Made by a program: the position numbers and the translations under genes | Source of the DNA: Rozella allomycis CSF55 | Taxonomy: Eukaryota | Length of the DNA stretch: 64,000 nucleotides | Reading direction: 5' to 3' | Assembly (NCBI GenBank): GCA_000442015.1 | Contig: KE560971.1 | Location: 1-64,000 of the forward strand | The notes under the pieces: generated by a model | What the model saw: the letters and a program-made list of their open reading frames with translations, nothing else | Database searches by the model: none | What the model was told of the DNA's origin: nothing | Shown here: positions 1 to 49,351 of the stretch, piece by piece | How positions within the stretch are numbered: the first letter of the stretch is position 1 | How the letters are laid out: each line of letters opens with the position of its first letter

Positions 1-3000
1 GACAATGGATGACCAATGATATTAGCAACCAGATCAATAGACTCATCAACAACCACTTTGTCTGCCAATTTCTTCAAGACTCTATTGTAATAATCAGCCA
101 ATTGTTTATAAACAAGATTATTTAAACTTTCAATTTCACTTAGCTGATTTGAATTGTTTAAACCAAGAGCGATTATTAAAGCCTTTTCAGCAGCCAGTTT
201 GATAGGCATAGAACGATCTTTGACCAAAGGAAAAACAATGTTGACTAGATTTGATAGATTATGTGAAACTAGAGAATGATTGTGAATAGCTAATTGTTGA
301 ATAAAGTGGAGTGATAATTTTTTGACTGAAATGTTGTCTTTTGAGCATTGATCTAGTAAAAGATTGAAATGGTTGTTGAATTTGTTTAATTTAAGTAAAT
401 TGAATAGGCAATGCAGAGATAATTCAACTGTTTCAATATTTTGATCTTGCAAACCACTTTGAATCAACTCAGAAGCTACAGAAGAAGATAGAGAAGCCAA
501 TAGATTATCAATTTTATCATTATCATTACAATTATTTCCCGTGGAACATAAAATGATTGATAGAGAAGCTTCTAAATTAACTTGATTTAAGTAACTAAAA
601 GAATCCACATTTAACAATGATAAACAATCAGCAGCCAACAACTTGAATCTAGAATTAAAAGATTTAACAATAAAATCCAAAATAGATTGTTTCGTTTTAT
701 CAGAAAGATTAACAGAATTAGAATTTACCAAAATTTGATGCAAAGCCAATAGAAAGTATTCCAGATTTGAATTATTAGAGATTAGCAATTGATTTGAATT
801 TTGAATTAAATCTAAAACAAGAAGATCTAATTTTGGTTGTAGGAGGGCTAATTTGCCTAGAAGAAAGGCTGATTGTTTCTTTATTAGAGAATTATTTTCA
901 GTGAGAGATTTTGAAAATGTTCGTAGCAGTTGAGGCAGAAATGGTTTTAAACTTGAAATTGATTTTTCAAATAGAATGTAGAAAGTTATTAAACAAGATA
1001 ATTTTAATGAATCTGGAATTCTTTCAGCCATTGTTCTAATCAACGGGCCCACCACAAGAGTTGGATTAAACTTTGAAGCGGGGGTTGAAATACTTCCACT
1101 ATTAACACCTTTAGCATCTCCATTAGCACTTGAAACATTTCCACTATTAACATCGTTACCACTTGAAACATTTCCACTTGCTAGTAGAATAAGTTTACCA
1201 AGTGATTTGATGGAATAATCTTTAATCTCAATACTAGACCCACTCAACAGCCCAAATGTACAAATAGAAATCAAAGGCCCAGGATTCAACAACTCTAACC
1301 CAAAAATAGCCTCTTTATTATTAATATTTGAATAAATAATTGGAATATAAACCTCTAATTCAGATTTAGGAAACTTCGAGATTAGATTAAGAATATTTAA
1401 AGATTTGTTCATTGTTTCAGTAAAAGAAAGAAAATCAATTAATTTTGAATACCAAAAGAGTTTATCTTGAATTAAATTAAACTTTTCACATTCAACAAAA
1501 CATTTTAAAAGTAAACAAGTTGATTCAGAATCTTCTTTTAGATTTTCATGCATAAAATTTGTAATAAATGTTAAATCTTGTGAATCTAAACAATTTGATA
1601 TTATTGCTTTTAATACAAATTCTACAGATTCATCTTTGAATGAACAAAGAAATCTTAAAATTAAATCTAATCTTTTATAAATCATGTTCATTTTCATTTC
1701 TTTTAATATCAATCCAAGAATTAAAACTTTGTTTCTATCTTTTATTAAATATTCTGGAATTATTTGTTGCAAAAGAAGAAATGGTTTTATTTTAGCTATT
1801 TGACACAACGCCAACAAATTATGTGACGAAAGTAATCTATCTACTTGAGAATTAAGAGAAGTAGCATCTTTGAGAGTACCATCATCACCTTTTCCTTCAA
1901 CCTCATCACCTTTCACTTCAATTCCTTCACCTTTACCTTCCCTCTCAACCTTTTCAACCCCCTCATCACCTTCAACTAATTCACTCATCATCTTTTTAAT
2001 CATCTTATTAACACTCTTCTCATCAAACTCTGCAATAAACTCCAACGCCATCGCCGCCTTCTCCCTCACAATCTCACACTCATCCAACAACGCCTTGCCC
2101 ACACACTCACTCAACACATCCACAAACACGCCAATCTGGTTAACATTGCAATTCTTCAACACTTCATTCAACGCACACACAGCCCCTATCCTCTTCATCT
2201 CCACACCATCCAGATTATCCATTATAATTGGGATAATCTTTTCAGTTACAAAGTCACCCAACTTTAACACTAGCTCGCCAACTGTTGATGCTGCTATTTG
2301 CTGCTTTTCGAATGAGTTTGAGGAGAGAAGGTCGATCACAAGGGAAAGCGTTTCGTTCAAGATTCTCTTGATCATGCGTGGGGAATTGGAAACTGAATTC
2401 TTCCAGATTATCAATGAGGCTTGTCTGACACTCAAGTTTACATCGAATCTTGAAATAAATAATTGTGATAGAATTAAATTTCTCTTTTCTAGTCCAAATA
2501 TCTTTTCCAGCCATCCATCATTCAATGTTTCTATTTGAAATTAAAGAATATGAATTACCATTTCTTTCTATATTGATATTTGAGCTCACTTCTCCCCCTT
2601 CAACTCTATCAACTTCTCCCCCTTCAACTTCTCCTCCCACTTCACCTTCTTTCTTAACTCCTTTAACTCTCCTCTTAATACCCTGCTCAATAACCTCTCC
2701 AATCAACTCCACACAACTCAGCCTAACCCTCCAATTCGCATCAAACCCATTCTCCAGCAGCTCAGGCACCAGCCTCTCCACCACAATGCCAAAATACCTC
2801 TCCACAATCATCCTACCGAGTCTAATAGCCATCTCCCTAATACTCTCCACCTCATCGCCAATCCCACCAACAACAACACCAACCATATCAACAACAAACG
2901 GCTCAAACGAACTCTTAAACGTCACCGGCAAATACAACAGCAAACTCATGAACCCTTCCCGCACACTGCTAGACACATGACACGTCATTTTAATAAACGC

Positions 3001-6000
3001 CGGCAACATTTCCCTCAGCTTGTCGATACCCAGTCCATAGATAATCTCGGATAACGCTTGAGCAGCACCTAAGCGGTCGACATTCAGCTGCGATTCGTTT
3101 AGTATTTTTAAAAGCTGTGGAATCAAATCTGCAAAATGCTCTTCGCCCAGTTTGTTTATTAGAGAGCCGAATGCTTTTGCTGAAATGGAACGGACATCTG
3201 GATTTGGATCTGATAGCATCTCTTTCAAGTTTGGAACTATTTGCGGCAGGTACAAGACAAAATCATTCTTTTCAGTTAAAGTGCACATGTTGGATACGAT
3301 ATGCGCTGCCTTTTTCTTGATTTCAGCGCTTCGTTCTTTTAAACCTCGTTGGATGATTGGAATTAAGAGGGCTAGTGAAGGTGGGTCAATGTAGTGAATA
3401 AATGTTGTTTCCATTAGAGCTTTTAGTGATGTTTCAGTTTGGTTGTTTGGATCGCTTAAACCTTTTAATAGAATTGGGCCAAGGGTTTGTATTTCTGGGT
3501 TTCTTATAACTGAAGTAAAATTTTCTAATGCTTTCTTTGCTGCTTCTTGGACATTAATGTGTGAATCATTTAAAACGTTTGCTATTTCTGGGATTATAAT
3601 TGGAAGATTTATAGACAATTGTTTTGGTGCCAAGAACGCCATTTGACCTTTAATAAAGTTTAAATATTGCTATTTACCTAGAATAAAGTTAAAACTTTAT
3701 CATTTACCTAGAATAAAGTTTAAACATCATTATTTACCTAATAGTTCAACACTTGCTTTCTTTGATCTCCATTGAGACTCTTTTAAACCATTCAATAGAA
3801 ACGGTAGAATAATTTTAACACAATGAGAACTGAGATTACTCATGATAATTCTGGATGTTAATTGAGCAGTGTTTCTAACTTGAATATTAGAATCACCAAA
3901 AGCTAATAATAAATTTGTTAATATTTGTGAGATGAATGGCTCAAATAATCTACCAAGGGTTTTAGATAACATTTCATATGCTATTAATGCACCTTGTCTG
4001 TGTTCAGAGTTTTTACTTTCAATAGCCAATTTTAATTCATTTAAAACATTCAATTCTTTCAAACACGAAATACCTATTATACTTGTAAATAGTATAAATT
4101 ACCTAGTTTTAACATTCAAATCATTTAATTACCTAAACCTTTGACTATTGATGATATTCCGTATGCACAACCTCTCTTGATAAAATATTCTTGTTCATCT
4201 TTTAATTTGTTTAAAAGAAGAGATAAAAGATTTATAGATTCATTTTTAATATTCTTGACTAGGGGGATTAAACATTGACTAGCAGCAAATTGAACAGATT
4301 CAGAACTAGTATTTAAACAATCAGCTATCAATAGTAAAATATTATTTAATCGTTCATCTCCTGGATTTAAATTCTTTGAAACTGATCCCAACAATATAAC
4401 GATCCCCCTAGTGGCAGGTGATGAAGTAGGTGGAGTAGTGGCATTCTTAACGCTTGAAGCATTATTACTTGAGCCATTACTTCTTAACCCATTACTTTTT
4501 GGTTCACTCTCACCATTACTAGCAATGGTTAAAAGATTGTTGAATAGATTTAACAAGTCTCGCAGTGCTCGTTAACTGGACGGGGAGGTATTCTAATAAA
4601 TATNGATCTAGATGATTCTTTCCATGATACTCAATAATAGTCAAACCAGCATTCAACATTTCTTCAACAACTTTATCATTCTCATCATTAAAAGCATTTG
4701 GAACAAAATTAAAGAAATTCAAAATATTTTCAGAATCTAAAAATTCACTCGACAGTTTAATCGCTTCAGCTAAACAAATTCTCGCATTGAAATTCAAATC
4801 AATATTTTCACTTTTAATTTCCATTCCAAATTCATCCAATCTCTTTTCTTTCCTTGTCAATTCAAAATAAAATGAAATCAATTCATTCAAAATAAATTTC
4901 ATTCTTTCTGGATTCTCTTTAATTCCAACAGCAATTGATTTTGAACAACTTTTTCTTATCACTTCAATTTCATTGTTCATCAATTCTTTATAAACAAAAT
5001 TCTCATCAATTTCAAATTCATTCTTTATCCAAATCTCTCTTGCTATTCTACAATTATCTTTATCACTCTCATTCATCAACACAAACATCACCTCTGTAAT
5101 TCTCTTGTTAAATCTCAAATTAAACTTTTCTAATCCCAACAAGCAAATCTGTCTAACATATGAATTATCATTAAACAATCCATCAACCAAATGAAGTTGA
5201 AGTTGACGAGAGTTATCAAGTTGAAGAGAGTGATCATTGGAAAGAGAGGCATCATTCGAAAGAGAGGCATCATTGGAAAGAGAATTATCATTATCACCTT
5301 CAACATTACCACCTTCAACTCTACATTCAACTCTACTATCACCTTCACCCTCTCCCTTTCCATATCCTCCCTTTCCATCTCCCCTCTCCACTTCAGTAAT
5401 AAGGTCACATGACTTTAATATAATCTCTTTACACTCTTTAACAAATCTTGGCTCCTTTTTCATAACATCAATAATCAATTTAATAAACAAAGATCTCGGC
5501 AAACTCTCCTCCTTCATCAAACTCAAATTATTCAAACAAATTTCAATCAAACTATTCAAATACTTGAATTCATCTTTAATCATTTCAAACAAATAAACAT
5601 AAAATATAAAACAAACAACATCCATCTTTATCTCCTTTATCTCCTCCACAACAACTCTTATCAAATCTTCAACCCTAGATGCTAAATTCATCTCAAAGCC
5701 TTTCAGTTTCATCAAAATAATCAAAATAAATCTACAAACTCTTTTTATTTCTTCTTCTTTACTCAACTCGCAAAATAACATCAAACATTCTTTAACACTA
5801 ATAACATCCTTGTCAAATTTCATCAATTCTTTATAAAAATAATTCACATCCCTTTCAACCTCTGCATTTAAAATTGATTGCTTAATTAAATTCAAACAAA
5901 TTTCTTTTTCTAAATAAACTTTCTCAACTTTATCTTTAATTTGCTTCTCTTTCATCAATTGCTCTTTAATCAGTCTTTCTTCTTCTTTGCTCTTCTTCAT

Positions 6001-7571
6001 TTGCTTCATTTTTATTCTCTTTTCCCAATCTTCTTCATTTCCATCATTTTGTTGATTTCCTTCTTTAATACTACTTTCAAATGGCTCTTCTCCTTTATGC
6101 TTCCAAATCTTCTTTTCTATTTCTGAAATTTCAGGAATATTCTTTAATCTTTTTTTAACAAAATTTAAAACAATCTCATAAACTTCTCTTCTCTTTAAAA
6201 ATAATCCCAATGATTCGAAATAACAATCTCTTATAAATTCATTCTTATTAAATATTCCCTTTTCATTAAAAAACACTGGTTCAATCTGTTCATATCCTTT
6301 ATCTATTGACTCTACAATCAATTTAATGTATCTTCTAGTCTTTTCAAACAATATCCCACTGCTTGACACTACCATCAATCTCTCCTCAATCCCCTCACTC
6401 TTGTCAGAATTTATAATTGAAAATATTATTCTTGTCAATCTATCACTGAAACTTGATGTTCCAATGGTATTTTCATCAATGTATTTAATTAATTCTTGTC
6501 CACATTCAATCATCCCACAATTCAAATACAATTCAACTCTTCTTGGTTCAATAAACTTTCCCTGCTCCAAATTCAAAAACACTCTAAAGAATATCCCAAC
6601 AGTTTCCTTGCTAATCATCTTCTTCACATTCTCATCTTTCAAAATCTCTTCCAAACACTTCAACACCCTAAAATTACTCTTCTTTATTAAACTCTTGTCT
6701 TGAAAATACTCTTTTTTAAAACAATTGACATAAACCTGCTCTCCTTGTCCCACCAGTATCATAATTCCAATCGCAAACAATCCCTCAACAGAGCATCCCT
6801 TCATCACCAATTCTTTCAATCCCTTCAAATCAATCTTTTCAATTCCGATCATCCCTCTCTTCACCATCATAAACATCAGCTGCAGCATCCATCCCCTATA
6901 CCTCTCCTGCTTCATCAACCCAAAACTATCCACAAACTTGCCAACATCAACATCCCCCTCCCTCTTCCCAACAATCTCACTCAGTATCATAAACACCAGC
7001 CCAACAACCACATCATTCGTCTCTCGCCCAACCATCCCAATCAACCGGCCAAAATACTCCCAATCAACACCTCCCCTCCCATCCCGCACAACAACCATCG
7101 CAGCTTCAAGCACACTAATCTTCACATCAACTACACTCACACTCTTGCTCAAATACATCCCCAAAACACCCGCAAACACATCCTCTAAATTACCAGCGCG
7201 GCGCACAATAATCCCCAAATTTTCAACAGCCAAACGTCTCACTTCTACATTACTCGCCTTCAACAAGGACACATAGCTCTTCAAAAAGGATCCACCAACT
7301 TTGGTGCCTACTCGCACATGTTGCCATATACTCTTCACGTCTACTAACAAACAGGTAATATTCTTACAGTATAGACCAGTATCCGCATTACGCAACAACT
7401 GCTTTTCTAAAGAAGCTTGCAAAGTCTCATACTCAGAGTCGCGCAACGTACGGAAAAACGTCTTGAACGGTTTCTGTGTTAGAAAATACATTTATTTACT
7501 AGACTGTTGTATGGCTTGGTTATCAGATTTTGGACTAGAGATAGTCGCTCCTCTCTTGTGCCCTTGGACAT
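1..7571 (-). CDS. GCN1: GCN1 HEAT-repeat translational activator; multi-exon, 3' end runs off the window
   Basis: Spliced translation gives GCN1 motifs WRSKKASVELLG|QMAFLAPKQLS, FIHYIDPPSLALLIPIIQRGLKERS, DRLGAAQALSE and WRVRLSCVELIG. Probable start MSKGTREE at 7571. Interrupted by an N at 4604. Confidence 0.92.
3648..3737 (-). other. Compound intron: three abutting 30-nt GT..AG units (tandem repeat)
   Basis: Minus strand gtaaataatgatgtttaaactttattctag / gtaaatgataaagttttaactttattctag / gtaaatagcaatatttaaactttattaaag. Removing all 90 nt restores VELLG-QMAFLAP. Confidence 0.9.
4074..4132 (-). other. Compound intron: two abutting GT..AG units (30 + 29 nt)
   Basis: gtaattaaatgatttgaatgttaaaactag / gtaatttatactatttacaagtataatag. 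Removal restores VKGLG-ISCLKEL. Confidence 0.85.
4553..4603. repeat. Dispersed ~50-bp repeat next to an assembly N, possibly a mobile-element end
   Basis: acaagtctcgcagtgctcgttaa..ggacggggag..ttctaataa recurs at 45265-45312; both copies end at an N. Confidence 0.75.
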
Positions 7572-7690
7572 GCAAACCAGGGTTCAAAGTAACGAATCGG
7601 GTTTACATTGAAATAATTTTAAATGATTAGTTTATTAATATTTGGTTTTAGAGAATAATAATTTCATTTTATTTCAGATTGGTTTAAAAG

Positions 7691-10511
7691 TTAAATACAG
7701 TCGTAGTAGACTTCTTTCGATTTCACATCATCCTCCGCTAGTTCATTGCAACTAGCATACATTTCAGAATCTATCATAAAACAAAATATAAACTTACTAT
7801 CCTCTGTCAATCCAAGCTCAGATAACAACCTCTCAACTTTTTCATCATCATTCAACGGAAACTCTTCAATCTTTGTATAAAACTTAGTTCCAACAACCTT
7901 TATAACTTGTTCCAAAGTCTCATAAACTATAGCATCAGGCAATTCAATACAATAACGCTCACTCTTGCTCCTTCCAACAAACAGAAACCGGCTATCATAA
8001 TACACTAAACTGTGCTCATCAAAATAGCTATTAAGCGGGATCCTGCAATTCTTATGCGCCATCAAACACACCCTCAATCGACCACATCCTCCCTGCACAT
8101 ATACGGACATCTGACACTTCATTGAAAATTTACCAAGCAACTTTGAACTGTAGCACTGGAAGACAAGCTTATCGTCGGTAATATCAGTGTCATCGGAAAT
8201 AAACTCGCTCGACTGCAGATAATTGTAGCACTCCTTTTCATCTTCAACCGCATCCACATCTTCTACAAATTTCAAAACATTCACAGGCTTGCTCTTTTCA
8301 TCACGGACTTGGGCAATTGCATTGAACACTTGGTCGCGGATCGATTGCTCCTTGAAGTGCACAAGATAATTTGTCGCGATGCCATTATTGTTTGGACAGC
8401 TGATGAAGAATCGCTTCGATTCGTGCATTATTATTTGGAATATTTGGTTGACCCAGATATTGATTATGTGGCGGCCGGATTGCTCTTGCGTGAATAGCAG
8501 TTGGTGGCGGCCGGTTGTCGAACGTAGTTTTATCGTGCAGATGCCAACTTCATCGTATTCTACAGAGAGGTCATTTTTCTTGGCTATATAGAGCCGACAG
8601 CGTGCAGAATTTATTAAGCAGTCTGGCGAATGGTCGTCGGTTTCCTGTAAGAGATTGTCGAGCCATGGCAAGGTGCCTTCAAACATGGAGATAACCTTGG
8701 GGACTTTGGCTTCTTTCTCAGTTGATGCCTCGATAACTGGCTCTTCTTTTTGCTTGTTTCTCAGAACGCTTTGCCTTTCTGTGATACGTCTGATCCAAAA
8801 ACTTTTCACGTCGGCATTTTTTGATAATAAAATACACATGAAATCATTTTCCATGTTAATTTGGAGTGCATTTTGTGATTCTATGTTATGATGGGTTATC
8901 CCTTACGAGGTGAATCAGGAATGTCAAGAAGAGTAATGTGATTCAGAGAGATTGGCTTCCATTTAATAAAATACTTTCCTTTATTCTTATGTAAAAAGAC
9001 TAGCTGTGAAGGCGTTAAGACCAAAAGAATCTTTTCAAGATGTTTTTCTTTTGTGTTGGTTTGAAACTCTAGAAACTTTTCTTTTGCGAGTATTCTATGT
9101 TCATCCATTATTTTTGAAAGCTCTTTGTTAGAAATGAACCTAGGTATTTCAGGAAATAGTTTGTTAAAGTAAGGATCCTATCATGTGCCTATCTTGCAAT
9201 TTACTGGCTCAATTTCTCTTTTAAGATTTTCCATGTCTGATCGCATTATTGTCAGCAATTTTCTTTCATCAATTTGGAGAAATAAGTCCTTGAGCAACTT
9301 TTCTATAGCTTTTAGGTTCTCGACATCGGGAAAATGATCTGGGACATCTCTGACAATGGACTATTATAAATTGATTCCTCTATTACTTGACATAATTCTT
9401 GATAATATTTCAATCGAGTATAAATATCGTGCAACATTTTGATTAAGCGTTTACATTTCCGAACGTCAGTACTTTCTCTTTCTAAGCCTTTCGAGATTTC
9501 ACTTTTTTCTCCAAGAACGATAGTGTAAATTTGGAATGTGCTTTTTATCTAACATTTATGATAAAAATAGTTACTAGTTTTGCAATGAGCGTGGACCCAT
9601 CGTTGATGAAATAGCTGTTTCGATAAAGACTTTCAAAGCTCTTGACTACAATCAATATTTTTACATACTTTATAAAACACTTCATGTTCCTTGAGTAAAT
9701 TAAACGCCATTAAACTTAATTCAACTAAGTTCATATCATCTTGTATCTACTTCAGGTAACATAAACTATTTACAGATTTCATATCTTTTAACATTTTAAT
9801 ATAGTTTTCTTCCGTTTGGAATAGCCTATAGTATGCTTCCTGCCTAATCGAGTCCTTTTCAATATCGGCCTCTTCCTCTCTTTGATCTTTCAAAACTTTC
9901 TCATAATCCGCGTCAATTTTCCAATCCTATATTATCTTATGTAAGTATATACTCGAAGAACAAATTCTTGTAATTCTTCTACTTCTTGCTCATCAAAACT
10001 GAATATTTTGCTAGACGGTCTAGAGATGCTAAGCTTGGATTCTTTTGAAAAACTAATTTTCCCTGAAAATATGTTTTTGGCTTTCTTTGACCAAAAAAGA
10101 GTTTTGATTACGAGATCGATCTGATACTTCTAATGGAGCCTGATGGTGAAATAGATCTAGGGTTGTCATCTATTTTCTTTATTATTAAAAACCTTTCGAC
10201 TTACTGTGTTGGCTGTGTTTAAAGAAGTCCTAGAACTTGAAAGAGAACTAATACCAAATATCCTTTTGGCGCGATTAGCCTCACTAAAATAAAGACATAA
10301 AGCTTACTTTCGGCTCGGCCTTCAGATGCTCCAATCCTTCATTTCCAATTAGTGAAGAGTTGGGAGATGTCTGCCGGCTACTATTTAAAGATGACAATAA
10401 TTTGGATTTCAAAGAAGATGACCATTTTTTCTCATCGATATTACTGTTAATTGATCTTTGGAATTTAGATTTGGTGCTGCTTTCTTTAAGATCAAATATT
10501 CTCTCTTCCAT
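7691..10511 (-). CDS. DH-PH RhoGEF-like protein, multi-exon
   Basis: DH-like segments RQEAYYRLFQTEENYIKML and RLKYYQELCQSIVRDVPDHFPD, followed by PH-like RILAKE..LVLTPSQLVFL..KWKPISL. Confidence 0.7.
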
Positions 10512-34488: not shown

Positions 34489-34663
34489 GTGTTAAAGAAG
34501 CCAAGTAACCTTTGAATAAAAGAAAATCATTTCTCGTGTTCCAAACTCCCCTATGTTAATACAAATTGTGTCAAATCGTTAAAGTTAAATGCTTTTATTA
34601 GTTTGTGCCACGCTTCTTAAATCCATTTATCAAAACCTCGTAGAATGATATAAGCGCCCCAAT
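34489..34663 (+). repeat. ~175-bp direct repeat (second copy ~37459-37632), preceded by a diverged ~80-bp tandem copy at ~34390-34470
   Basis: Near-identical tgttaaagaagccaagtaa...gatataagcgccccaat at both places. Confidence 0.85.
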
Positions 34664-34767
34664 AAGACATGAAGCTTGAAAAGTATCCAAACTGATAGAT
34701 CCGAAATAAGACGTTAAAGCATTATTTGATTTAGCGATACCAATAAAGTATTTGGTTACGTGGAATA

Positions 34768-36738
34768 TTACCATGCTAGCCTTTTCCTTNACATTGCGGC
34801 CTGATTGGAATGGCAGCTAAGACGATTACTACGCTTTGTCATGTGCTCGGATGCGGCCGAAAACGCTGATGTTGGCATTACACACAATGCGAATGTAAGC
34901 ACATTTCGAAGGCGTGGATAGTGTTCCCTATGCTCCGTCCACCAGGTCAAGGCATCCATTTTTTTGGCATAAATACTAGCACGGTCCAATCGCACATAAT
35001 ACTTAAGCGCCTCGTCGTATGTATCACAGTTAAAATTTTGTATACCTTCCTCCTTGGTTTGTTTTAAAAATTGATCAAACATGCGTTCCCTTTGACTTTT
35101 CTTAACTGATTGAGCAGCATTATCTGATGTTGTTTCAATAATTCATTCATTATTTGATGTTTCAACCAACTTCATCATGTCTAAAACAATGTTGCGAATA
35201 TGGTGGGAATGGCGACGAAGGATAAATTCAAGCCAGAATCGTCGCAATCCACACCACACGATGATCACGGACGTTGTTAAGAAATCAATTTAGAGCCACT
35301 GCTGTGTGTGAACCCGAAAACATTCGAAAATCCAATGCGATATCCCGGGAATTGCACATATCATCTATCCAATGGGCAGAAATTGCGACATACGAGGGAT
35401 TTGAAATATCGAAGTCCCTGAATCCAGGGTGAGAGCAATACCTTCAATTCTAGGCATCAATTCAATAAACACCATTTTTTCATTACGTTACCATGCAATT
35501 ATGTCTTTGCGTACCGTTTGACGACATGGAAATTTGAAGGAACTAACACCATAACACGCGAATCTTTCATAATTTGTTGCAGACAAAGTTTGAAATCGGT
35601 AAAGTCTACCCCGGAATATGACTGACTGTCAGTCACGATTCATTGAAGCATCACACGATTCGCTGCTGGGGTCAGTGCGGGTAGAAACTTTTTCGGCGCA
35701 AAACAACTTGGAATGGACGGGCGTATTGGTTCGCGATGCAGTTTCTCAAAATGCGCTTTTATATTTCAACTTCCCGTAGTTATGCAAAACGATTGTGGGC
35801 AATGATTACACTAACAAATAAATTGGCCGGTGGTATGGTCTTTTTTGCGCTACAGAAAGCATCTCTTCAGCCACGGTAAGTTTGCGCAACTCTGTTACCA
35901 TCTTAACGAACTCAAACGCCGCACGCACTGCACTTTTGACTTTGCTGTTGGAATCCACGTCAGTCCGGACTTGAAATTGCGATACCGAATCCGATGGCAA
36001 AATCGTTTGTGACAACTTGTCGTAATTGTCCTTTTTTTCAATTTCTATAAACACGTTGTAAAAAGTATTCGAATATCATTACATTGGCTAGTAGGCTCTA
36101 ACCAATTTCTATTTGTGCCGTTTGACGTATGAAAGACTCACGCTCTTTAGGCTCCTATTCATCATCGCTTCGCTCATCTAAATTCACGGCCACTGTTTTC
36201 GAGATTTGCGTGACAAGAGGCTTTTAGAGCCATCCAATGTCCCATTATGACAAGGCCAGCACCTAATTTGTTGCCTGAAACCCTCTTTACCAATGCCGTG
36301 GCCACAAAAGACATGCACATGACTTCCGCAGTCGGGACANTTTTGTCCTTGGGAATTGCGACAAAGGATAAATTCGGATCCAGAATCGTCGCAATCAACA
36401 CCAAACGATGCGAACTAACTGCAGAGTCATACTTTTGCCATTTGGCGATCATTCTATATTGCGTATTTCATGATGACGTTACGCTTTACTGACATCATTC
36501 TCCCAACTGGTCGTGGAGTCCGCCATCATGTCAATATGCTGGCGAATTATAGTCCACCACATTAAAACGCAAGAAATAGTTGCCGTTGATTTTCCACTAA
36601 GCTCCACTGTAGCATCATAAAACGGCTTAAACATCGTTGCAATCTTTTCGAGCTGAATCCATTCGTCTTGGGTCAGGGTGACTGCCTTCAATGAAGTGTC
36701 TTTTTTGTAAATATCCGATCCGCCAACCAAGGTTAAAA
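34768..36738 (-). mobile_element. Degenerate hAT-family transposase fragments, probably more than one copy
   Basis: hAT dimerization motif LTWWTEHREHYPRLRNV..PTSAFSA, LTQDEWIQLEKIATMFKPFYDATVELS, IATILDP and SYVAISAHWID; stops, frameshifts and Ns throughout. Confidence 0.85.
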
Positions 36739-36739
36739 N

Positions 36740-37179
36740 TGTGATGTCGTCAACATAAATCTAACAATCATTAGTTAAAACTCTCGCGCGGTGACGGCCG
36801 GTGTTGAATCTTGTCGCTCCCCTCATAAATTGGATAGTAAATCAAAAGATAAAAGAGTCAAACAGATGTCGATTGAGAATGGATTGTCCTCCGTTCTATT
36901 TATTGATATCTCCTTAGAGTTTTATATGTGGGTCCTTTCTATAAATAGTATCCTTTCTATAATTAGTATCAGAATAGAGATCCGTCAGGTAAGAGATCCG
37001 TTCAGAATTAGGACTCCCCTCTTTGATTATTTTTCTAAGATGTGTGGGATGAAAATCCCTCTATGAATTGTGGGATGAGAATCCCTGGTACGGCAAATCT
37101 CACCTTTGGGGTCCTTGAAGTTTCTTCTCATATTTGGGTCTCAAATAGGGCGTGGCTGTTTTATGTGATGGTTTCAACA
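36740..37179. mobile_element. Possible solo LTR (~440 bp)
   Basis: Starts TGT and ends ACA, has an internal TATAAATA, and is non-coding and compositionally distinct. The left edge abuts an N, so no TSD can be tested. Confidence 0.45.
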
Positions 37180-37632
37180 TAGATCTGGCAATCGTTTGTA
37201 AAAACTCCCGGGGTCCTGGAAGTTTTTTTGCAAATCATGAATCTAACCAGTCTATTAATGTTCCTCTAGTCATAAAACTAGTAAATTGAATATGCGTTAA
37301 TGTTGAAGCTCCATGGATTTCTTTGAATCTATATCAATAGAATAGATCGAGTAAAAAAGGCTCAGAGATACAATGAATCATCAGAGAATTTTATCAGTGT
37401 TATTGAACATGTCATTGATATGAACAAAAAATTAATAATCAAATTNGTGAGTATAGTATGTTAAAGAAGCCAAGTAAACTTTGAATAAAGGAAAATCATT
37501 TCTCGTGTTCCAAACTCCCCTATGTTAATACAAATTGTGTCAAATAATAAAAGTTAATTACTTTTATTAGTTTGTGCCACGCTTGTTAAATCCATTTATC
37601 AAAACCCCGTAGAATGATATAAGCGCCCCAAT

Positions 37633-38131
37633 TAGTGTTGTTAACGGCTCGGCTCGGCTCGGCTCGGCTCGGCTTGACCTCGGCTGGCACCATGACTCTC
37701 AGCCGAGCCGNCGTGGAATATTACCATGCTAGCCTTTTCCTTTTCCACGTTAAAAAGAATGGACAAGAAGAGTGGAAGAATGTTCAACCAAATCAGCAAA
37801 GGGAGAATATGATCAAACTCGAACAACATAGAAAGTTCATATACCTGTATCATTACCGTTATAGCAAAGGCATTCAAATAATTCGATTGAAGCTGCCTTT
37901 TCACTTTATCGATTCTTTTTTCTGTTTCTAACGTATCAATGTCAGAATCATCCTGATGATTATTTTTGTCTTCAATTAAAGACTCCATTTTATTATCCTC
38001 CTGCNGATACAATCATCAGAGAATTTTATCAGTTTTATTGAACATGTCATTGATATGAACAAAAAATTAATAATCAAATTTATTAACCTCAGCTCGGTCG
38101 GCTGAGTGTTTTGGCCAAGCCGTTAACTACA
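37633..38131. mobile_element. hAT-like terminal sequences: imperfect TIRs with (CGGCT)n subterminal repeats
   Basis: Left end tagtgttgttaacggctcggctcgg..; right end ..ggccaagccgttaactacaaa, an inverted match to gttaacggct. Internal Ns. Confidence 0.6.
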
Positions 38132-45264: not shown

Positions 45265-45312
45265 ACAAGTCTCGCAGTGCTCGTTAAATCGGACGGGGAG
45301 TTTCTAATAATA
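45265..45312. repeat. Second copy of the ~50-bp dispersed repeat
   Basis: Matches 4553-4603 and ends at N45313. Confidence 0.75.
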
Positions 45313-45313
45313 N

Positions 45314-48300: not shown

Positions 48301-49351
48301 GGGCTTGAAAATTGTCTTTCTTTTACTGCATTATCTACCCTGGTTGAGAAATTTACAGTTGAATCAAATTTATCTTTAAATCGAATTGTTGTTTTGAAAA
48401 TGCTTTTAATTCTAGTTACCCTAAATTTTAAACTATCACAAAGAGGAAATTCAGAAGATACAAAGAGAAGTGATGAAGAAATCAACAGTCACAATCTGCT
48501 TGGAATTCATAATGAATTAATCAACAACGCTTCAAATGTTCAAAATTTTGTTGATCTTGTGGTTAAAATGCTCATTAAATCTCATCCAATCAATGGAAAA
48601 GAAAAATTCAAAAATGATTTCAAAATTCTTTTCAATATTTTCAATTCAAGAATTTACAATGAAGAAATTAAAGAAATTGAAGAAATTGAAGAAATAAAAA
48701 ATCAAAACTTAAATTTGTTTTTAAACGCAACTCTTTTGCTCTTCAATGTTCATTTCAATGATGAATGGGAAATTAAAGCTGAAGATTTATTAGATAATTC
48801 TCTTCATGTTCAATCTGAATTATCACCCTTGAAATTGATAAACTTTAAATCGTAAACTTGTTTGTTTCTTTAAATAGATTCAATTTAATCAATCTACCTG
48901 AAAGATTTGATTTACTTTTTAAATTCAGAGATGAAAACCCTTGTTTAACTTGTAAAAATATTCCTTATGATCCAGCCTTGTGTTTATTCTGTGGAAGAAT
49001 CCTTTGCTCTCGTTCTTATTGCTGCAACACTGGTGGGCTAGGCGAAGTTACAACTCACACAGAAGAGTAAACTTATTCCTTTCATTAAATAGACACGGCG
49101 TTGGTATTTATCTATTAATAAACTCTTGCATTATTTTAGTTCTTTACAGAGGAAAAGCTTGCTATTTACCTGCTCCATATCTCGATGAACATGGTGAATT
49201 AGACTTGGGTCTCAAAAAAGGAAGAATCCTCTTTCTCATTGAAAAAAGATATCTCGAAATTAAAAAAATGTGGATTCAACACAGATTACCAAACGTCATT
49301 GCAAGTAAACAAAAACATGAAGACAGATTCATCAATTGGGATTTTCTTTAA
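45314..49351 (+). CDS. UBR1: UBR1 N-end-rule E3 ligase, main part
   Basis: CMECF..H..GGCCDCGDPEAWK, ClpS-like LYNDETHSY, RING-H2 CIVCQE..STCGHSMH..YQCPLCK, YLDEHGELD. Confidence 0.93.

Follow-up and report, generated by a model that had tools for sequence, protein, structure and literature searches.

The window analysed here, a stretch of 64 kb from Rozella allomycis, carries on its minus strand a series of ORFs with the Pfam domains HEAT_GCN1, HEAT_EF3_GNC1 and HEAT_GCN1_C, whose protein matches include ones named GCN1 and GCN4-activator. Within this gene, between the flanks ...SVELLG and QMAFLAP..., the minus strand from 3737 to 3648 consists of three abutting 30-nt units, with a zero-length exon between copies. 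The first of them, U1 (3708..3737), adjoins the 5' exon ending in ...CTATTAG and runs from GTAAAT to TTTATTCTAG; U2 (3678..3707) has the same start and the same end; U3 (3648..3677) also begins with GTAAAT, ends in TTTATTAAAG and adjoins the 3' exon, which opens with GTCAAATGG. The joints between U1 and U2 (3708/3707) and between U2 and U3 (3678/3677) both read TAG|GTAAAT, and 3' and 5' splice sites are therefore juxtaposed as AG|GT inside this interruption, as they are inside a double intron lying further upstream in the gene. A sequence-only reading had proposed precisely this anatomy, three times 30 nt with GTAAAT starts and AG|GT joints between VELLG and QMAFLAP, and it was confirmed at these coordinates. 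As far as the sequence goes, joining the exon ending in ...TTAG to the GTAAAT of the next unit produces the same context as the original junction. Tandem Repeats Finder described the array as a repeat of period 30 with 3.0 copies, 83% matches and a score of 129. Upon retention, every unit would bring in-frame stops into the reading frame, namely TAA and TGA in U1, TGA and TAA in U2, and TAG in U3.

The exons on both sides indicate what becomes of the array in the mature message. The exon placed between the two composite introns (3738..4073, minus strand; GISCLKE...SVELLG, 111 full codons) is 100% identical to the NCBI protein P0391 of R. allomycis CSF55 and aligns end to end with residues 1441-1552 of the ortholog P0244, with 55% identity. 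In the exon downstream of the triple intron (2559..3647, minus strand; QMAFLAP..., with the Pfam domains HEAT_EF3_GNC1, HEAT_GCN1 and HEAT), residue 2 corresponds to P0244 residue 1555, with no gap and no residue missing or added at the junction. P0391, a partial model of 349 residues, contains ...VKGLGISCLKE..., which crosses the upstream 30+29 site without interruption, as well as ...VELLGQMAFLAP..., which crosses the triple site; its stretch over the junction of the triple array reads ...KKASVELLGQMAFLAPKQL..., and when laid on the window it displays a 30-column gap exactly at the triple array. Since P0391 and the ortholog P0244 are colinear across the site, all 90 nt must leave the mRNA; taken together, the protein alignments show all 90 nt and all 59 nt of the upstream interruption to be absent from the mature coding sequence. 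The gene also harbours a single ordinary intron of 28 nt at 2531..2558 (minus strand; GTAATTC...AAATAG), whose removal restores the frame ...ERNETLNDGW.... P0391 was the sole public protein found over this part of GCN1, and no full-length Rozella GCN1 model appeared among proteins of 658-2000 residues or among 50% representatives. Likewise, a metagenome contig scan with the downstream exon matched 197 patterns and found no relative of the locus. GC skew is strong over 4001-8000 (-0.43 to -0.52 on the plus strand), and the 5' half of GCN1 is G-rich on the minus strand, with many Gly, Glu, Val, Arg and Lys residues.

The double intron is a second abutting pair, of 30+29 nt, located 336 nt upstream of the triple array (4132..4074, minus strand), where it forms a 59-nt interruption between ...VKGLG and ISCLKE... 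at the junction KGLG|ISCLKE. Its first unit, Va (4103..4132, 30 nt), follows an exon ending in ...AAAGGTTTAG and runs from GTAATT to AAACTAG, whereas Vb (4074..4102, 29 nt) runs from GTAATT to ATAATAG, with intron scores of 11.4 and 13.9, respectively; the joint at 4103/4102 reads TAG|GTAATT.

In order to place these units among the introns of the region, the window was scanned for GT..AG stretches with an in-frame stop that connect a pair of open frames, each of at least 40 codons, and one candidate of 22-34 nt was taken per junction. This heuristic procedure yielded 86 candidates, including some false positives on antisense frames, with the following lengths: 22 nt (1 candidate), 23 (1), 24 (1), 25 (3), 26 (22), 27 (22), 28 (12), 29 (13), 30 (5), 31 (2), 32 (1) and 34 (3). 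The claim that introns elsewhere in the stretch are confined to a narrow range of lengths was thus borne out, 69 of the 86 ORF-joining candidates measuring 26-29 nt. The five units of the two arrays, at 29-30 nt, fall at the upper edge of the distribution, where 18 of the 86 candidates lie. A cross-check with MCM3 pointed to the same scale: the NCBI protein laid on the window revealed six interruptions of ~27-30 nt, the MCM3 exon in the window being 100% identical to the R. allomycis CSF55 protein and the next named relative, Paramicrosporidium, standing at 62%. Among 25 longer ORF-joining candidates inspected by eye, only the 59-nt and 90-nt ones were intron-like in our judgement, and the window yielded no plain intron above 34 nt; the remaining 23 were rejected as apparent coding sequence, antisense frames or pairs of short introns flanking a short exon. 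The possibility of a ciliate code, in which TAA and TAG encode Q, was also discarded, given that TAA and TAG are found in frame nowhere but at the ends of ORFs and within introns, a distribution that indicates the standard genetic code, and that the organism is a fungus-like opisthokont; for instance, no in-frame TAA or TAG exists between 7494 and 4521, a frame of ~990 codons.

Splice signals in the window are weak, consisting of GTA(A) on the 5' side and (A)(T)AG on the 3' side. A position-weight score trained on 50 introns outside GCN1 (median 12.5, 10th percentile 9.8) assigned 11.7 to U1, between the 25th and 50th percentiles of the training set, 11.2 to U2 and 11.3 to U3, and all five units lay within 11.2-13.9. 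The combinations of outermost sites scored on par with single units, at 12.3 for the whole 90 nt and 12.9 for the whole 59 nt. Although this score is weakly specific by itself, with 203 single unit-like matches versus 103 in shuffles, the abutting arrangement was rare: on both strands, only three pairs of abutting units of 24-32 nt exceeded the threshold, all of them at the two GCN1 loci, whereas 100 dinucleotide shuffles gave 0.02-0.04 on average and never more than 1. No excess was observed in the window for pairs at gaps of 1-30 nt, which would correspond to micro-exons. By these sequence measures, each unit is shown to possess what makes an ordinary intron here: the length, a 5' GTAA, an A/T-rich body and a 3' AG.

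The triple array is a head-to-tail repeat whose copies are clearly homologous. Pairwise identities among U1-U3 amount to 26/30, 24/30 and 22/30 (0.73-0.87). Among 1225 background intron pairs (mean 0.47, sd 0.08), none, or only 0.08%, reach such values. Va and Vb, on the other hand, are no more alike than random pairs, their identity of 0.48 being equalled or surpassed by 42% of the same background, which indicates that the second pair is no recent duplicate; when tandem duplication is judged by the homology of the copies, the 30+29 pair falls short. Elsewhere in the window, the UBR1-like gene contains two 26-nt introns (48852-48877 and 49067-49092, plus strand) that lie 215 nt apart and are identical at 22 of 26 positions, the highest identity among the 1225 background pairs, while their flanking exons are unlike each other; this pair hints that introns may also be copied to nearby sites.

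Variation among the three units of the triple array is unevenly distributed. Nine of the 30 positions vary, comprising six of the seven at unit positions 7-13 and only three of the 23 elsewhere (Fisher p 8.8e-4), in line with the earlier suggestion of conserved ends and length with diverged middles. Two of the three variable positions outside the middle are boundary positions, CT versus AA, and when they are set aside a single variable position remains among 21 (p 1.2e-4). The retention of the ends of every unit while the middles drift is what one would expect if splicing relied on the signals of the individual units. However, the conserved 3' part of U1-U3 extends over 17 nt, far beyond the weak 3' consensus of ordinary introns, so the pattern may not derive purely from selection on splice signals.

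Short tandem repeats are sometimes mis-assembled, and one of the 13 single N in the window lies 870 nt from the array, which raises the question of whether the true locus holds one 30-nt intron expanded by the assembler. Four DNA runs, X1, X5, X6 and X7, were compared using contigs built with 31-letter words. In X5, which comes from another study, a 1724-nt contig spans 2882..4580 without gap or difference and carries three units, not one, demonstrating that the array does not stem from an error of a single assembly. Furthermore, neighbouring units share no stretch longer than 23 nt, which is below the word length of 31 letters, and the assembly path through the array is consequently unambiguous. 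As another haplotype also displays an array, expansion by the assembler appears extremely improbable. Of the single N in the window, eight cluster at 34490-38080. Direct repeats ~3 kb apart (177 nt at 94%, 31 nt at 100%) occur in this region, together with a 70-nt repeat whose copies are separated by 635 nt and, near 37650, a GGCTC microsatellite; it is probably a repeat-rich, gap-ridden element.

The second haplotype, ~3% diverged, was detected in X1, X6 and X7. Over 1-9500, both haplotypes occur in X1 (~100-120 versus 200 depth) and in X6, while X5 contains the window's haplotype only and X7 the other only, a distribution pointing to a source that was heterozygous or mixed, in which alleles segregated or dropped out. 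Both haplotypes carry arrays, the unit number of the second one being read from loose contig ends. One X7 contig extends through the 3' exon as far as 3665, after which come 16 unit-like letters ending in ...CCTAGA; another X7 contig has 21 unit-like letters ahead of an ungapped match to 3652..4235. Provisionally, these contigs would imply an extra unit of 29 nt beside the 3' exon and a third unit ending in CTAG, hence at least four units, a reading based on loose ends of k=31 contigs in which the array is visible only in part. The window's U3 resembles a fusion between the 5' part of the other haplotype's putative third unit and the 3' end of the fourth, and a deletion of one unit within the conserved stretch would yield the window's U3 exactly. 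The other haplotype also differs in U2 at 3695, unit position 13, within the variable middle, and GT and AG are intact in all units of both haplotypes, the other haplotype's array having been pieced together from contig ends.

The haplotypes differ in other parts of the gene as well. At 4554..4604, the GCN1 coding sequence of the window's haplotype contains an insertion, the left part of a dispersed high-copy element, after which an N marks an assembly gap. Depth over the element reached 152-6834 in the four runs, versus 12-320 beside it, and many different loose ends were recovered; no GT..AG ends that would make the element an intron were seen. In the other haplotype the site consists of 5 letters, with an in-frame joint 4553>4605 in X1, X6 and X7, and the window's copy of GCN1, whose frame is broken at 4554-4604, may be a damaged allele. 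P0391 begins just downstream of this repeated element, as if assemblies and gene models break there, and a similar copy, also followed by N, is found at 45266-45313, just upstream of the exon encoding the UBR box of the UBR1-like gene. Further differences between haplotypes fall in 5206-5367 (minus strand), where 80 nt are replaced by 29 letters and 57 nt by 3 letters; this part of GCN1 is of low complexity, with abundant Gly, Glu, Ser, Asn and Asp residues, and contains an 18-nt periodic repeat at 5208-5297.

Unit similarity, along with the apparent difference in unit number between haplotypes, indicates that the triple array originated by tandem duplication of an intron, as had been proposed from the sequence; such an origin seems well supported. 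According to the model that we favour, a tiny spliceosomal intron of GCN1 would have multiplied by local tandem duplication, through slippage or unequal crossing-over with a period of 30, giving rise to complete abutting introns, numbering three in the window's haplotype and, apparently, four or more in the other, whereas the 30+29 pair would represent an older or independent event. The spliceosome would then recognise each unit as an ordinary tiny intron and excise the units one by one, and every excision would recreate ...AG|GTAA..., turning the next unit again into a normal intron. Because the 3' signal of one unit overlaps the 5' signal of the next, these steps would have to be successive. 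Overall, the process would amount to recursive splicing across zero-length exons at the 30-nt scale, and partly spliced RNA would carry an in-frame stop in each remaining unit. The combination of intron duplication and stepwise excision is in our opinion the best explanation of the data, a judgement that we hold with moderate confidence.

With respect to the mode of removal, for which the sequence-only reading had proposed three steps by a spliceosome restricted to ~30-nt substrates, the successive excision of single units is probably the route followed, with removal in one step as its main rival. Successive excision is favoured by the fact that the units are ordinary by every measure available, with the nearest 3' site at the preferred distance. 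The first AG downstream of the branch point is normally the one used, and the sites of short introns are paired across the intron, properties that favour the pairing of nearest sites. An RNA fold that would bring the outer sites together received no support in the analysis of the array (z 0.16). In one-step removal, the outermost 5' site would be joined to the last 3' site, internal sites would be unused or used occasionally, and the array would be an intron-derived 30-nt minisatellite. The mature product would be identical, the outer sites score as well as single units, and the apparent difference in copy number between haplotypes is what a neutral minisatellite would display. Moreover, introns of ~30 nt are described in an R. 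allomycis S23 gene and introns of 120-152 nt in two relatives (PMC6349667), and the latter argue against an inherent hard length limit in the wider lineage and show that longer introns are spliced there. Nevertheless, unused internal GT and AG dinucleotides should decay like the middles of the units, yet they persist throughout both haplotypes, and the unrelated 30+29 pair has an internal TAG|GTAA at unit spacing, a coincidence whose chance we estimate at <1% per 59-nt intron. The absence from the window of plain introns above 34 nt and the location of the nearest 3' site at the optimal distance weigh in the same direction, and we consider one-step removal a real but rather unlikely alternative to successive excision.

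The stops present in the units could also suggest a regulatory device, in which incomplete removal of units would generate nonsense transcripts and thereby tune GCN1 output. Every unit would place a stop in frame if retained, and both arrays reside in one gene, a sensor of translation stress. However, in-frame stops are common in A/T-rich introns and our intron calls were selected for stops, while the apparent difference in unit number between haplotypes fits neutrality better, hence a regulatory role seems improbable. Only tentatively might the model of successive excision be extended to a general rule, under which splicing would pair sites exclusively across ~25-32 nt and longer introns would be chains of tiny introns, minisatellite-like in nature, providing a route for introns to multiply in place, and perhaps to seed nearby copies, with the protein untouched.

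The triple array constitutes a natural test of whether a longer intron is removed piecewise by a cell that normally removes introns of ~27 bases. If its units are removed singly, it would represent the smallest-scale recursive splicing seen, arising from the duplication of an intron and not from the subdivision of a giant one, and it would show that intron structure in a genome of tiny introns is shaped by an upper length limit. Irrespective of the mechanism, the locus offers a clean and apparently polymorphic case of an intron multiplying by tandem duplication while the protein stays unchanged, which bears on intron gain. From a practical point of view, gene finders trained on introns of 26-29 nt will mis-model such sites.

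Several known systems invite comparison. The stwintrons of filamentous fungi comprise two spliceosomal introns at one site that are removed by consecutive reactions; they are nested: the outer intron has a splice signal interrupted by the inner one, and the order of the reactions is thereby fixed. In GCN1 the units abut, each with its own GT, A/T-rich body and AG, and any order would be workable; as no unit interrupts the splice signal of another, identity with stwintrons was rejected. A closer resemblance exists with recursive splicing at ratchet points or zero-length exons, described for long introns of Drosophila and vertebrates (PMC2773006, PMC5126111, PMC6110456). In both situations an AG|GT lies inside the intron, removal of the upstream part regenerates a 5' site, and no exon nucleotides remain in between. 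In contrast, the introns described there span tens of kilobases, whereas those of GCN1 measure 90 nt and 59 nt (59-119 nt overall), and the GCN1 pieces are complete minimal introns, tandem duplicates in the triple array, whose stepwise removal is here a prediction.

As regards origin, intron gain by tandem genomic duplication at AGGT (PMC3265369, PMC4974935) resembles the present case in that a local duplication supplies the second GT and AG, the product being spliceable and the protein unchanged. There, exon sequence is duplicated and one new intron results, while in GCN1 the repeat unit is an intron that already existed, and the copies adjoin without intervening exon. In Cryptococcus, intron number polymorphism has been attributed to expansion of DNA repeats by slippage, unequal crossing-over or conversion (PMC2395259). 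Near-identical introns within one gene are common to both systems, and the number of units, which differs among strains there, may differ between haplotypes here; the Cryptococcus repeat nevertheless consists of exon plus intron and the protein gains repeats, whereas the zero-length exon of GCN1 leaves the protein unchanged. Finally, the genome shares with that of Paramecium, whose introns average 25 nt (PMC8997360), very narrow intron lengths, 26-29 nt here, and weak signals. No report of abutting or tandemly duplicated tiny introns was found in the literature searched, PMC12862383 included. We regard the GCN1 array as what would be a variant of two known phenomena, recursive splicing and intron gain by tandem duplication.
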